Shown here: positions 59,116 through 63,984 of the stretch, one piece after another
How the letters are laid out: the number at the start of each line of letters is the position of its first letter
How positions within the stretch are numbered: position 1 is the first letter of the stretch
Origin: Candidatus Marinacidobacterales bacterium
Lineage (GTDB): Bacteria > Acidobacteriota > Vicinamibacteria > Marinacidobacterales > SMYC01
Direction: 5' to 3'
Length of the DNA stretch: 64,000 bases
Assembly (NCBI GenBank): GCA_965224085.1
Contig: CBDCYI010000005.1
Span: 512,001-576,000, forward strand
Notes under the pieces: generated by a model
Told to the model about the DNA's origin: nothing
Databases searched by the model: none
Seen by the model: the letters and a program-made list of their open reading frames with translations, nothing else
Translations under genes and position numbers: made by a program

Positions 59116-59465
59116 GGGGGCGCCCTGGGTTCGACGGAGATAATTGATTTCGAGGTGGCATGCCGAGCTCCCATCCCTCGTTAAACGGTGGGAAAACACA
59201 CAATTGCTGACCAAGAGTTAGCTTTAGCCGCGTAAGCCGGCTACGTTCTCCCGGGTTTCGCCCGCCGTGCTCGGGAAGAACGTCATTCAGGTGGGCTAGC
59301 CGGACATTCGCCCCGCGTGTCCAGCGAAACTTAGGGGATAACTTTCATCAGGTCCTTGCCGGCTCCTAACTGATTGGAAGTGAAGCTTAACGGGAACCGG
59401 ACACGCATGTAGAGGCCTCGGAAGAAGATCTTCGGACGCGGGTTCGATTCCCGCCGCCTCCACCA
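59116..59465 (+). ncRNA. ssrA: tmRNA
   Basis: 5' GGGGGCG...TTCGAC pairs with 3' CGCCTCC-ACCA with G3:U wobble; T-arm GCGGGTTCGATTCCCGC; tag ORF 59206-59235 encodes ADQELALAA*. Confidence 0.95.
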
Positions 59466-59476
59466 TTTAAACTACT

Positions 59477-59692
59477 CTAGTTCCTCGTGTTAACTTTTTC
59501 ATCCAACCCCGTCTCCACAATGTCTCCAAAACGAGAACCGGTTTTTGGTTGCTCCAACAAACGAATCGCACCTTCCACCGCTGCCGGGCTCAAGTGCATG
59601 TAACGCTGCGTGGTCGTGATGTCTTTGTGACCGGCAAGCTCCTGAATCGCCCGAGTGGGTGCCCCGCGCATCGCGAGGTGCGAACAAAACGA
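59477..59692 (-). pseudogene. Tyrosine integrase C-terminal fragment A
   Basis: SFCSHLAMRGAPTRAIQELAGHKDITTTQRYMHL; begins at the codon right after the missing H-x-L-R-H; ends 11 bp from the tmRNA 3' end. Confidence 0.85.
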
Positions 59693-60019
59693 ATTAATAG
59701 CGGTTTGCAGGAATCGAGCGAAGCACGGCGTTACGCGAGGCACGATGCTTGTAGAGCGAGCATTCGTGCAAACCGTAATTGAACTAAGCCGCCCAGCTAG
59801 CGGCAACTATGCATAAATTGGAGTGAGAAGACGGTCGGACAGGAAGTCGGAGTTGGACGTCAGGGAGTTGCGAATCGACAGAGATATGGCGGGGAAGATA
59901 GAAGAAGGGCCTACCCGGTGCGGTAACCACCACGGTAGCGTTATGAGTTCGCGACGAGACACACGAGTCCGTTTCAACGACCGGTCGGCGTTGTGAGAGG
60001 CGGAGCGAAAGCATCGTGA

Positions 60020-61267
60020 TCATGACTCATCTGGAGGGGAGCGGATCTGGAGGTTGATCCGTCGAAGCTTCGTGGAGAGAGGGCATCGGAGCATGCGACC
60101 TTTCTTGCAGCGGGGACAGATGGTGAGGTCGATGCCGGTGAGCTCCTTGAGCCGCTCGCGCCAGTCCTTGTCCTCGGTGGCACGCGAGCTGACTTGCACG
60201 TCGTCGGCGTCGGTCGTGGGTTTTGTTTTCTCATCGAGCAACTGGCGCGCGACTACGAGCTTGGTGGTCGCATTGGAGGAGGCCATTAAGCCGAAATGGC
60301 GAATCTTGACGAAACCTTTCGGCAGTACGTGCAGGAGGAAACGGCGGATAAATTCCTCTGGGGGGACGGTAACGGTATTACCATTCTTGGTGGCGAAGCA
60401 GACGCCGTAGTGGTCGATGCGAATGAGTCGGCGGTTGGAGATGCCGACCCGGTGGGTATATCGGCCGAGGTAGTTGAAAACCTGCTCTGGGCCACCGAAG
60501 GGTCGTTTGCTGTAAACGACCCAATCGATGCGGTAGAGCTTGTCTTTCAGCTCCCGGAAGCGAGGTGGGTTTCTGAGGTGGGAAGCGTTTGCGCTCAACT
60601 CAAGCTCATCTTGGTCGTAAGCGAGCCTAAGGGCATCGAGAAACTTGCTGCGAAAAAGCCGCGACATGGCCTTGACGGGAAACAGAAAGCGAGGGTTTGC
60701 GGCGTTCCACAGCTGCTGAGGGTGGTTGAGCCCGCCCCCGGAGACGATGCAATGCAGGTGTGGATGGAACAGGAGCTTCCGGGTCCAGGTGTGCAGTACG
60801 GCGGTGAAGGCAAGTTGAGCTTCGAGCCGGCTTTGGCCGAACTCCAATAGAGTTCGCGAGGCGGCGCGAAACAGGAGGTTGAACATGAACTTGGGATTGT
60901 CTCGGGCGAGAGGCTTGAGTTGCTGCGGGAGGGTGAAAACGACGTGGAAATAGTGAGTCGGAAGAATCCTCTGAGCTCGCTGCTCCATCCACTTCGCCTG
61001 GGCTAGGCTCTGACACTTGGGACAGTGCCGATTGCGGCACGAGTTAAACGAAGGCGCCGCGTATCCGCAAGCGTTACACACGTCGAGATGGCCACCTAGC
61101 ACCGCCGTGCGACAGTTCTCTATAGCCCACATCACCTTGCGCTGCTCGGCTGTCAGCGCATGGGTTTGGCGAAAGCGTGGACCATGTTCGCGGAAGATTT
61201 CCGCGATCTCGAGCAGTGGCCGTGGTGGTGACTCGACGCGGGAAGGACACAGCCCATGGGGCTGCAT
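60020..61267 (-). CDS. IS91 family (HUH, Y2) transposase
   Basis: Zn-binding CRT..CNAC..SCRNRHCPKCQ, HVVFTLP, LHTW, HPHLH (HUH), YLGRY (Y2), RHFG. Confidence 0.93.
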   Translation of the reverse strand: MQPHGLCPSRVESPPRPLLEIAEIFREHGPRFRQTHALTAEQRKVMWAIENCRTAVLGGHLDVCNACGYAAPSFNSCRNRHCPKCQSLAQAKWMEQRAQRILPTHYFHVVFTLPQQLKPLARDNPKFMFNLLFRAASRTLLEFGQSRLEAQLAFTAVLHTWTRKLLFHPHLHCIVSGGGLNHPQQLWNAANPRFLFPVKAMSRLFRSKFLDALRLAYDQDELELSANASHLRNPPRFRELKDKLYRIDWVVYSKRPFGGPEQVFNYLGRYTHRVGISNRRLIRIDHYGVCFATKNGNTVTVPPEEFIRRFLLHVLPKGFVKIRHFGLMASSNATTKLVVARQLLDEKTKPTTDADDVQVSSRATEDKDWRERLKELTGIDLTICPRCKKGRMLRCPLSTKLRRINLQIRSPPDES

Positions 61268-61273
61268 GATGAG

Positions 61274-62134
61274 CTAGCCGAGCTTTTTGCCCTTCTTCGT
61301 TCCCAGCAAATCGAGAGGGCTCTTGATGCGCCCCAAGTGCTTTGCTGTTACCTTTGTGTAACGGGCCGTGGTCTGGATGGAGGCATGACCGAGCAGTTGC
61401 TGCACGGTACGAATGTCTTCACCCAGTTCGAGCATATGTGTGGCAAAACCGTGGCGCAGCGAATGAGGAGTGATACGTTTGGTGAGCCCCGCCTCAGCCA
61501 CGGCCTTACGAAGAGCCCAGCGAACGCCATCGTCTGAGATGTGGGCACCAGGATTACGGCCGGGAAACAAGTACTCTCCGCGAGGGCGAGTGGTTTTCCA
61601 GTAGTAGCGCAGGAAGCTCAACAAACGTTCGCTGAGCGTGACATAGCGGGCCTTGGAGTTCTTGGCGTGACGAATGTGCAAGAGCATGCGTTTGGAGTCG
61701 ATGTCGGAGTGCTTCAGACAGCACACCTCGGAAACGCGCAGCCCGGCGCCGTAGGCGCTCATGAGAATCGCGCGGTGTTTGACGGAGTGAACGGAGTGAA
61801 GCAAACAATCGACCTCCTCGCCGCTCAAGATATCGGGTAACGTGCGAGGTTTCTTGGGCCAAGGAATCTTCGCCACCTCCTCCGGGCGGTTGAGTGTGGT
61901 TGCGTAGAGAAACTTGAGAGAGGCGACGTACATGTGGTGGCTGGCCGGAGAGGCCTTCTTCTCGTTAACGAGATGAATCAGATAATCGCGGGTCTCCGGC
62001 TCGCCCATCTCGGCGGGTGAGCGCATGTAATGTGCCGCGAAATGGCGCGCTCGCAGCAGATACTCCTCCTGCGTGGAGCGTGCGAACCCCTTCAGTTTCA
62101 TGTCGGCAAGCATTTTTTCGCTAAGGCATCCCAT
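61274..62134 (-). CDS. Tyrosine recombinase, intact
   Basis: YGAGLRVSE, K, HSLRHGFATH, LLGH, TARY: full catalytic set. Confidence 0.93.
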   Translation of the reverse strand: MGCLSEKMLADMKLKGFARSTQEEYLLRARHFAAHYMRSPAEMGEPETRDYLIHLVNEKKASPASHHMYVASLKFLYATTLNRPEEVAKIPWPKKPRTLPDILSGEEVDCLLHSVHSVKHRAILMSAYGAGLRVSEVCCLKHSDIDSKRMLLHIRHAKNSKARYVTLSERLLSFLRYYWKTTRPRGEYLFPGRNPGAHISDDGVRWALRKAVAEAGLTKRITPHSLRHGFATHMLELGEDIRTVQQLLGHASIQTTARYTKVTAKHLGRIKSPLDLLGTKKGKKLG

Positions 62135-62672
62135 GATTATTCCTCCAGTGATTTAGCAGACGACGACCATCGCCGCCCGCGGGGGACAGGGATGATGCCA
62201 TGTGTGAGAGAGCGGTTCCGAGAAACGCAGGACTCGTTGTCCGGAGCGAAGATCGAACGAATGAAGACGACGGCGAAGCCGTCCTCCTTAATCCCTTCTG
62301 GCTCCCGTGGCCCGGAAAAACAAGGGAAACGGGTTAGAGGCGAGTGAGTTCACCGCGGCTGGCTTGCCGTGCAAAACCCGGAGTCCGGAGCCCCTGCCGG
62401 AGGCACCCGTCCGCCCATCGCCCATAGTGACTCGCATCATGGCGCGTAGGTCGTGTCCAGGGCGGCGCAGCCGGCGCGCGAAGCGCGCGAAACCCTTGAC
62501 ACGACCTGCGCGCCGTGATTCCCTGGAAGGGCGATGGGCTGCGGCGAAAAAGGCGCAGGCAAAATGCCCCCAGTTTGGCTCACCAGTTCGGGAGAGCTTG
62601 CAGGTCCCGCCGCCGCGCGAGCGGCTTAGTTCAATGACGGCTATGCCGAATTCGGCATAGGCGACATAATGC

Positions 62673-62831
62673 ACTTCAGCGACGCTCTCGCTCCAGGCGG
62701 GAACGCCGGTGCACGTCGTCTCGCAGCGTCTCGGGCACAAGAAGACCGACATCACGAACGACATCTACGCGCACGCGCTTCCTTCGATGGGCCGGGACGC
62801 GGCCACGAAACTTTCGTCGCTCTTGAGGTGA
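62673..62831 (+). pseudogene. Tyrosine integrase C-terminal fragment B (ICE/phage type)
   Basis: Manual translation TSATLSLQAGTPVHVVSQRLGHKKTDITNDIYAHALPSMGRDAATKLSSLLR*; starts right after the missing H-x-L-R-H; not in the ORF track. Confidence 0.85.
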
Positions 62832-62835
62832 TTGG

Positions 62836-63138
62836 ATGGTAGAGGACCGTATCGATAAAGCTACTAAATGGGCCACCACCCACGAGGCGTGCGGTGGCAA
62901 TGTAGAGCCGAAGGAACCCTCCCGTGAGGATTTCAAAATAGTCGGTGGCGTATTGTTAGGCTCGTACCGCGAGGTTACTTGCACCGGTTGCGGCGGGCTT
63001 TATCGTGACTTTGTGCCGATGGAGCAGGCCCTGGAGCGTGTCGCGTTCCTCGAGGAAATATGCAAGAAAGAGGGGATTAACCTCGAACCTCGAATTCCTC
63101 CCAGCAATGCTCTTCTGCCTCTTGATTCTCGGTTTTAA
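62836..63138 (+). CDS. Hypothetical protein with HxxC/CxxC motifs, 3' end probably fused at a junction
   Basis: HEACGG and CTGCGG; starts 4 bp after fragment B; tail overlaps the truncated integrase. Confidence 0.45.
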   Translation: MVEDRIDKATKWATTHEACGGNVEPKEPSREDFKIVGGVLLGSYREVTCTGCGGLYRDFVPMEQALERVAFLEEICKKEGINLEPRIPPSNALLPLDSRF

Positions 63139-63631
63139 TCGACTTGGGTTTGTTCTCGACGAGTTCAGCCGGATTGACGAGGATCTTTTTCTTGCGCTGT
63201 GCGAGCTTCAGAATGTTGAAAATAATCGCCGAGTGTTGTTCTAGAGTTGATTGAGCGAGTGTCTCTTGTTTGTCGAAGTAGTATTCTTCTATGTGCTCGG
63301 GTTCGAGCTGTTGCAGACGAATCGAGCTTAGAGCTGGCTTGATGTGCAAGTCGAGGACGCTTCGATAGGTTTCTATCGTTCGCTGACTCTTGCGAGACTC
63401 GACGTAGGTTGAGAACCAAGTCTCTGACCATTCGCCAAATGTGAGCTTCGAGGGATCTACGTATTCACCACGGCGAACGTCACCGAGGAACTTGGTGATC
63501 TGATCTTCAACCTTTCGTTTGGTGCTCTCGGTGATGGTAAGTTGCTTGCGCCGTCCTGTCCCGGGATCTATACCCACGTCAATACGAGCGAACCAAGAAT
63601 TACCACGTTTTTTCGGTTTCGATCCTCTCAT
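63077..63631 (-). pseudogene. Integrase N-terminal part (arm-binding + SAM-like domains), truncated before the catalytic core
   Basis: W.ARID.G.DP.TGRRKQ, GEYVDPSKLTF.EW, TIETY...HIKP.L..I.LQ.L, LVNPA; stops at 184 aa. Confidence 0.8.
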
Positions 63632-63984
63632 GCTGTCATTCCTAGCCGTTTGTAGATCTCAATTCGGGAGATTCGGATCACACGTTTTCTTCCGTAACGC
63701 TCAGCGGGAAGCTCTCCGCCGTTGACCATTTCACGCACGAGACCGGGACTGATATTTAGCGCGTCTGCGGTCTGCTGTACATCGCACATATCCGGAAGGC
63801 TCTCGATCTTAATCTGTCGTTTGATTCTTCGTTGCTTGGCGCGGGAGAGGCGCTCGATGAGGGTTAGAGTACGAGGACCGAAGATAGCTTCCTCGCGCTC
63901 CCATTGCTGCTCGGCGAACTCATAGCCATCTTCGAAGTGCTGACGCCATGCGGGATCGTCGACCATTGGTTTATGCGCGCTCAT
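63628..63984 (-). CDS. Excisionase-like HTH protein
   Basis: DVQQTADALNISPGLVREMVNGGELPAERYG..IRI; overlaps the integrase start (ATGA). Confidence 0.75.
   Translation of the reverse strand: MSAHKPMVDDPAWRQHFEDGYEFAEQQWEREEAIFGPRTLTLIERLSRAKQRRIKRQIKIESLPDMCDVQQTADALNISPGLVREMVNGGELPAERYGRKRVIRISRIEIYKRLGMTA

Follow-up and report, generated by a model that had tools for sequence, protein, structure and literature searches.

Recombinase-in-trio (RIT) elements, which have been known since 2009–2013, and IS91-family insertion sequences (ISs) are the described systems closest to the locus reported here. The locus lies in a 64 000-nucleotide stretch of DNA (the window; contig CBDCYI010000005.1, positions 512 001–576 000) from a Candidatus Marinacidobacterales bacterium (assembly GCA_965224085.1; genome G000, 12 contigs). 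In it, the C-terminal parts of two integrase genes, integrase A and integrase B, enclose an IS91-family element and a 38-bp block that is the end of a lost RIT element. IS91 has a target tetranucleotide, GTTC/CTTG, abutting its ori end, and ISfinder lists IS91 members with an upstream recombinase gene.

Published RITs have the gene order ritA–ritB–ritC and a size similar to that found here, according to Van Houdt et al. (2012; PMC3414803), who describe RITs inserted into radC and into a transposase gene of the Tn6049 type, as well as ends that vary in sequence, where a palindrome and an inverted repeat of 28-9 bp were all that they found. Palindromic end repeats on RITs are likewise given by Nielsen et al. 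(2017; PMC5737581), and Table 1 of Idola et al. (2023; PMC10214605) lists target specificity, empty site and movement of RITs as not tested. The RIT papers also report 34-bp inverted repeats, 47- and 51-bp palindromic repeats and a frequent location in islands and other mobile elements; PMC8138268 contains only a classification of RitA, RitB and RitC. The related loci described below resemble these RITs in having three tandem overlapping tyrosine recombinase (YR) genes, a length of about 3.3–3.5 kb and terminal inverted or palindromic repeats, whereas the window holds 38 bp of an end without rit genes. No target site is given in the available text of PMC3414803, PMC5737581 and PMC10214605; here, the ends are resolved to single bases, and the targets preferred are R-H codons in recombinase genes, C-R codons in HNH endonuclease genes and a fixed point in IS66 transposase genes. 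The structure of the RIT end and its homing to codons of catalytic motifs appear to be a property new to an element class already known.

Ends of RIT elements and their targets

The block (62635–62672, plus strand) separates the right end of the IS from integrase B and is unique in G000. Together with base 59693, on the far side of the IS, it forms a 34-bp imperfect palindrome with 13-nt arms and an 8-nt centre. Positions 62661–62667 are a 7-bp inner core, GCGACAT, and 62661–62672 match the first 12 nt of RIT inverted repeats. A near-identical block (28 of 33 positions) precedes an integrase A-family fragment in G055, a genome from the same class but a different family; between the two blocks, the outermost positions of the palindrome show compensatory changes. 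A 30-nt search pattern with 23 fixed positions was derived from the block, and the sample below consists of the RIT ends that match it. The pattern occurred in five of 401 genomes of the class, including G000, where the match in the window is exact; the reversed control pattern gave no match in the same 401 genomes. One match with two mismatches (G189) had neither a recombinase flank nor RIT features and was taken as spurious. With seven loci from a genome collection (Acidobacteriota, Desulfobacterales, Chloroflexota, Lamprobacter and Obscuribacterales) and 55 metagenome contigs, the total is 66 blocks in 62 public loci. Hairpin or fold-back repair as an origin of the palindrome was superseded once the block had been found elsewhere.

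A Rit-like recombinase gene lies inside the block, within 1.6 kb, in 42 of the 46 cases with at least 900 nt of inward sequence; the other four are G055 and one cluster of three contigs. The block stands 78 nt from three tandem overlapping recombinase genes in G017 (PF00589, E values of 1e-20 to 9e-36) and upstream of a ritA-like gene in G295, where the neighbour of that gene is cut by an IS110. The overlapping ritA–ritB–ritC trio is present at the related loci L097, L105, L147, L122 and L127. Complete elements measure 3316–3430 bp and have matching inverted repeats, which in L105 are perfect over 31 nt, start with the core GCGACAT and continue with repeated TTATGCCG motifs. RIT ends of the window's type have the 7-bp crossover core GCGACAT flanked by ATGCCG/CGGCAT repeats, and the terminal inverted or palindromic repeat of RITs is present in the block as an exact match to the 30-nt pattern. 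No rit gene, and hence no RIT trio, was found in the window or anywhere else in G000; the window therefore contains a scar of a RIT, not a member of the family, and the 38-bp block is the end of an element that has been lost. The ends of a precursor that remain in place, for which the first-pass annotation of the window had allowed in parenthesis, do exist, and the surviving one belongs to a RIT.

The palindrome sets a reading frame, in which the outward flanks were read; the 66 blocks gave 46 distinct flanks of at least 66 nt. An open frame of at least 30 residues is present in 31 of the 46, and PF00589 is matched at E ≤ 0.01 in 21 of these 31 (22 of 32 with the window counted). Nine of ten flanks tested singly align from their first residue at PF00589 profile position 133 (the R of L-R-H), and Pfam missed the tenth, a RitB-like C-terminus. 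The recombinases in the flanks include the integrase A type, Xer/integron-like enzymes, RitB, RitC and others. Since the seven flank bases beside the palindrome vary at synonymous positions of the R-H codons (CGN or AGG, followed by CAY), they are target DNA rather than element DNA. Three complete RITs (L105, L137 and L153) interrupt a recombinase gene exactly at HxL|RH. The N-terminal part of the gene at the other RIT end stops at ...H-x-L and the terminal core of the RIT completes L-R-H; when the RIT and a 20-nt palindromic filler are removed, an uninterrupted recombinase frame results. As a baseline, G000 has 13 820 GCGNCAY sites, of which only 19 fall inside a recombinase match or no more than 10 nt from one. 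RITs prefer the R-H codons of recombinases, and the three clean insertions document their entry into such genes. The core idea of the first-pass annotation, a mobile element that homes to H-x-L-R-H codons, is thus borne out for the RIT, whose ends lie at R-H codons of recombinases in 21 of 46 distinct loci.

Two further accounts of the block bear on this identification. In the first, the integrases would have been truncated independently by deletions and IS activity, with no meaning in the common break or the palindrome. Such decay does occur: broken integrase fragments lie elsewhere in G000 (C4:1575896, C11:787952 and C5:966604), an unrelated rve-type IS has interrupted a paralog of integrase A four codons away and fragments in relatives break at residues 161–314. 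It is nevertheless very unlikely as an explanation here, as at least five recombinase families, spread over several phyla, have the 30-nt block at the same codon, the reversed pattern is absent from the 401 genomes and covariation of the palindrome arms is seen when the window is compared with G055. The earlier argument that two breaks at the same codon exceed chance consequently stands, with the 38-bp block and not the YR- and IS91-type element as their cause. In the second account, which we regard as highly improbable, the palindrome is an attachment or operator site of the integrases themselves. Mx8 IntP and the SSV1-type integrases carry the phage attachment site (attP) inside their own gene, and there, too, the integrase gene is split at the recombination site with its N- and C-terminal parts at the element ends. 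The block lies inside a coding region at a fixed position, has a lox-like 13-8-13 geometry and in G055 stands alone beside an integrase A-type fragment. Full-length relatives of integrases A and B, however, lack it at H-x-L-R-H, and the split genes here are, unlike in Mx8 and SSV1, targets of a foreign element. The block also accompanies unrelated recombinase, HNH and IS66 genes, with RIT genes inside it in 42 of 46 cases, and taking out the RIT with the block restores the target frame in L105.

The remaining flanks point to a broader specificity. HNH endonuclease genes account for about 12 of the 46; they read toward the block and are cut right after ...L-C-R, and five of the six tested end at HNH profile position 37–38. 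Three flanks are IS66 transposase genes, all cut at profile position 258–259, one is an IS256-type transposase gene and the rest are assorted genes. Recombinase and HNH flanks have about 16 of 18 bases beyond the core in common, which argues that the specificity is for a DNA motif of about 17–20 bp that encodes catalytic motifs of mobile-element enzymes. In L147 and L144, intact or truncated RITs are flanked by the C-terminal parts of two different recombinases, both facing outward. On an Obscuribacterales contig (L105), one RIT is located inside the ritC gene of another, so that RITs parasitise each other. Two complete metagenomic RITs (L127 and L122) have the palindrome at both ends. On either side of them lies the same half of the target, in inverted copies (in L127, the N-terminal part of an HNH gene on both sides), an arrangement hinting that RIT movement includes a fold-back or an inversion.

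We lean, by a small measure, towards regarding RITs of the window's type as dedicated parasites of other mobile elements, which would home into and inactivate the enzyme genes of these elements and, through recombination between copies, join integrase C-terminal halves head to head. In this reading, their core would be a copy of the L-R-H codons, related arms would suit the HNH codons for C-R and the fixed IS66 motif, and the targets would include islands, phages, ISs and other RITs. Group I and II introns, inteins and homing endonucleases target conserved catalytic-motif codons. RITs resemble them in inserting at the most conserved DNA of a widespread enzyme family, which provides sites in many hosts and elements, and differ from them in using tyrosine recombinases and in not splicing out, so that the target gene is inactivated. 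If this reading is correct, RITs are hyperparasites with a site available wherever mobile DNA occurs and a cause of integrase decay and island fixation, and the odd head-to-head integrase fragments found in genome annotation are explained. With a defined 7-bp core and 34-bp site, RIT transposition becomes testable at the bench and RIT ends can be annotated automatically.

The IS91-family element

The element between integrase A and the block (59694–62634, minus strand, 2941 bp) belongs to the IS91 family, to which it is new, and has a YR gene (62134–61274, minus strand; Pfam Phage_integrase) upstream of its Y2 HUH transposase gene (61267–60020, minus strand). The transposase scores 407.8 bits against the NCBIfam equivalog NF033538 (IS91 transposase; cut-off 125) and matches the Pfam families Y2_Tnp (6.3e-55) and Zn_Tnp_IS91 (3.4e-31). 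There are 13 left and 13 right ends in G000 with 99–100% identity, which indicates that the copies are recent. All left ends begin with the bases at 59694, and base 59693 varies between copies and is flank; ten right ends stop at the base that matches 62634 and the remaining three are 4 nt shorter. One copy lies within a Ser/Thr kinase gene whose ortholog in G001, a genome of the same genus, is uninterrupted (locus L069), and comparison with this empty site gives an insert of exactly the 2941-bp element without a target-site duplication. The left end forms a stem (59696–59714 pairing with 59762–59780), and a 14-nt inverted repeat joins 59779–59792 with the right end (62621–62634). The related genomes contain, at the DNA level, only distant relatives of the element.

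The junctions given in the first-pass annotation change accordingly. On the left, the break at SFCSHLAM is real, but its position (59692/59693) was off by one, as the 13 left ends and the empty site place the first IS base at 59694. On the right, 62672/62673 had been taken as the end of the element with the YR and HUH genes, while the other copies end at the base matching 62634 or 4 nt before it.

According to PMC5714925 and PMC10288648, IS91 elements have a transposase with Y2_Tnp and zinc-binding domains, orientation-specific ends, many copies, some of them truncated or read through, and no target duplication, all of which are shared by the element in the window; it differs in carrying the upstream YR gene. 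A second difference lies in the target. The left flanks have T, A and A at positions -3, -2 and -1 in 8, 10 and 12 of 13 cases, and the nine distinct right flanks have T, T, A, T and G at +7 to +11 in 8, 9, 7, 8 and 5 cases. The target motif is thus TAA| followed six bases on by TTATG, with TAA as the transposase-distal flank in place of GTTC/CTTG and the second target element six bases past the other end. The tetranucleotide GTTC/CTTG is not found at the ori end; GTTC occurs only inside the other end of the element (...GTTCAA). Rolling-circle transposition through a single-stranded circle would be in keeping with two indirect signs, the subterminal stem (59696–59780) and three copies with a common alternative right flank. 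These three (C5:267339, C5:1596409 and C5:1631248) lack the last 4 nt and are identical over at least 100 nt of right flank, a pattern suggesting that either the terminator end was read through or a further repeat adjoins the IS.

That this element itself targets H-x-L-R-H codons and made both breaks, as the first-pass annotation proposed, is extremely improbable. Its left end does lie inside the His codon of integrase A, and it encodes a tyrosine recombinase. Its right end, however, is 38 bp from integrase B, and the other 12 left and 12 right ends are away from PF00589 matches, one copy being in the kinase gene. The match to the IS motif at +7 to +11 moreover comes from the RIT palindrome and not from native integrase A. 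A whole-genome Pfam scan of G000 gave 22 PF00589 matches at E ≤ 10, of which 12 are the IS's own recombinase genes or fragments of them; beside the other ten there is no IS end apart from that in the window, the nearest being 5.6 kb away. The proposed targeting of integrase codons by the IS is therefore refuted in its own genome, where the reconstructed empty site is that of the kinase copy. The outer segment is of the RIT type, an outcome that the annotation itself had named as one that would speak against its proposal, and the IS merely inserted into the RIT site. A literature search found no text on the role of the recombinase in IS91-type elements. An inversion mediated by the IS was also considered and rejected, since G000 has no integrase A-type N-terminal part and no IS end beside a recombinase match.

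Upstream of the YR gene, about 160 nt of the IS (62375–62539) match many separate places in G001, G003, G010, G012 and G031 with 71–78% identity (up to 86% in shorter sub-stretches). The stretch contains a 27-nt inverted repeat (62436–62462 and 62493–62519) and has no Rfam match; the IS may carry here a small repeat element or an RNA.

Integrase fragments and history of the locus

The integrase A fragment (59477–59693, minus strand) encodes 71 residues, from S-F-C-S-H-L-A-M to the stop codon (59692–59477), with the third base of the preceding His codon at 59693. Its match to PF00589 (positions 135–170, E value 1.9e-9) begins at the residue after the R-H of H-x-L-R-H. Full-length relatives in other genomes have 370–390 residues and adjoin tRNA or tmRNA genes (tmRNA in L056, L063 and L094), and integrase A is the remnant of a tRNA/tmRNA-targeting island integrase. 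L-R-H had been described as missing from it; the R codon CGT and the CA of His are in fact present directly to the right of the IS (62635–62639, read on the minus strand), and these five bases are identical to the R-H codons of the integrase A paralog and of the relative L064. The IS therefore splits the His codon of integrase A, and the true end of the integrase A sequence is a few bases beyond the IS, at the palindrome.

Integrase B (62673–62831, plus strand; fragment 62673–62828) encodes 52 residues from T-S-A-T-L to the stop codon. Alignment to full-length relatives places its start at the residue immediately after R-H, as previously described. Its PF00589 match (positions 138–169, E value 0.0015) is under the gathering score, but it is 51–62% identical to the last 51–52 residues of the full-length relatives L076, L077 and L083; the alignment to L078 covers only residues 10–51 (57%). 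Both fragments contain the C-terminal catalytic features of tyrosine recombinases that follow the R-H of H-x-L-R-H, namely G-H and the nucleophile Y. They belong to unrelated families and are oriented away from each other and from the element between them, as the first-pass annotation had also noted. An integrase N-terminal part of the same family as integrase B lies at 63083–63631 (minus strand; Phage_int_SAM_3 and other Pfam matches); it corresponds to about residues 1–208, with arm-binding and SAM-like domains. The full-length relatives of this part (L076, L077, L078 and L083; 404–440 residues) end in a C-terminus like that of integrase B, which is thus not an independent gene. By tblastn, L076 residues 24–208 match C5:575655–575083 and residues 364–414 match the integrase B fragment. 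Integrase B represents the C-terminus of the integrase that begins at 63631, in inverted orientation and with about 155 middle residues lost.

Three comparisons with other integrase fragments were set aside or left as observations. Among integrase A relatives, 7 of 16 fragments or pseudogenes end at residues 299–314, but this apparent hot spot at H-x-L-R-H was not counted, because local alignments tend to begin at a conserved patch and two of the cases are frameshifts. One of the 16, L066, comes from the unpublished genome G027 and is not used to support any conclusion. In the integrase A-related pseudogenes L060 (G018) and L064 (G001), the sole visible frameshift is at the catalytic His codon, which could be chance or the footprint of an excised element. 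An integrase B paralog at C4:1616785 was rejected as a carrier of the block, its local alignment being homologous only from the T-P-V codons onward.

We consider it likely that a lost RIT which homed to catalytic codons explains the junctions and that the IS91-family element is a later, ordinary insertion. Three unrelated mobile elements would then be layered downstream of the tmRNA gene. The first layer would be decayed islands, one at the tmRNA site with integrase A and a separate one with integrase B, its N-terminal part and an excisionase. The second would be a RIT of about 3.3–3.4 kb with three tandem tyrosine recombinases, formerly present here. Such a RIT would recombine into the recombinase genes of other elements exactly at the R-H codons, because its core is the DNA that encodes the (L)-R-H of H-x-L-R-H, and would leave a 34-bp palindromic site beside the C-terminal part of the gene, here still fused to the R-H codons of integrase A. 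The orientation of the block is that of a RIT junction bordering integrase A on its C-terminal side, and the presumed order is integrase A C-terminal part, R-H codons as outer core, palindromic filler and inner core with the first bases of the RIT repeat (62661–62672). Integrase B, at 62673, would stand where the body of the RIT is expected, with 12 nt of RIT inverted repeat left in front of it. This layout would most simply have arisen if two RIT copies, or a RIT end and a second R-H site, recombined and the body of the RIT was then lost; because L147 and L144 have two different recombinase C-terminal parts around one RIT, the layout of the window is a known outcome of RIT activity. We infer that the integrase B junction was made by a RIT, and the order of events is proposed in the same sense.

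In the third layer, the multi-copy IS would have inserted one base inside the palindrome and so split the His codon of integrase A. The target motif of the IS (AA| and then N6-[T/C]TATG) is supplied at this site by the palindrome, with C-T-A-T-G at +7 to +11, and native integrase A, as represented by the paralog and L064, does not fit the motif at these positions. The IS would therefore be the later arrival of the two, and that it lies in the His codon would merely follow from its having landed in a RIT site.

The exact form of the integrase B junction allows two versions. The version in which 62668–62672 are part of the RIT repeat seems to us slightly better than an even choice. In the other, a RIT with two palindromes was deleted through its identical palindromic ends, and the inner core (62661–62667) is the R-H codons of integrase B itself. 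The RITs of L147 and L144, with identical palindromes and two different recombinase C-terminal parts, fit such a deletion, and each palindrome can pair as a direct repeat; the five extra bases between the core and the T codon of integrase B nevertheless match the RIT repeat (N-ATGC), and we regard this version as doubtful.

Several points weigh against the history proposed above. Positions 62668–62672 are explained only as RIT repeat, and the exact start of integrase B is then not accounted for by a simple model. The outer core is CCGTCAT on the coding strand, the first base of which is unlike the usual GCGNCAY. The RIT is deduced from 38 bp, 23 positions of which served as the search pattern, in a genome without RIT genes, and the flank sample holds only RIT ends that fit this pattern. 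Genes other than those of recombinases (HNH, IS66, IS256 and others) make up about half of the RIT flanks, which makes the specificity one for a DNA motif and not for integrases as such. Finally, the target preference of RITs may already be in print; a literature search found no text on RIT targeting of recombinase genes, with Ricker et al. (2013) and the supplements of PMC3414803 outside that search.

Taken together, the first-pass observation of two integrase breaks is partly confirmed and its interpretation partly supported. If the proposed history is correct, the corrected annotation of the window comprises a single, ordinary IS of the IS91 family, the scar of a RIT and the decayed integrases of two islands.

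Surroundings of the tmRNA gene

The tmRNA gene (59116–59465, plus strand) was identified with ARAGORN and Rfam (RF00023, 174.8 bits) and encodes the tag ADQELALAA. The stop codon of integrase A is 11 nt from its end, and the gene is the attachment site of the island that owned integrase A. As in other islands at tmRNA sites, the integrase lies beside the 3' end of the tmRNA gene and a degenerate copy of that end follows about 8 kb on (C5:579.6 kb). After this copy, 3.6 kb past the right end of the window, there is a second C-terminal fragment of the integrase A type (C5:579560–580140; L021 5560–6140). This paralog has 83% DNA identity to integrase A and retains V-L-R-H; the unrelated rve-type IS that cuts it four codons upstream of the break in the window has itself been struck by an IS5-type element. 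The site thus holds decayed islands in tandem.

Upstream of the integrase N-terminal part, an excisionase-like HTH_17 gene is located at 63628–63984 (minus strand; PF12728, E value 1e-7). Between the two integrase pieces, an open reading frame (ORF) of 100 residues (62836–63138, plus strand) overlaps the N-terminal part on the opposite strand; Pfam gives no match for it, and none of 100 related genomes has a relative. It was considered as a marker for intact integrase B loci and dropped, and it is probably not a gene, because G000 is its only source among 101 genomes. In the island remnant outside the window, a 415-residue ORF (L021 3803–5050) has a zinc motif like that of cytidine/dCMP deaminases (HAE...PCxxC). 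Its neighbours are phage-tail-like and ribbon-helix-helix-like ORFs, and it may be a defence or phage gene.

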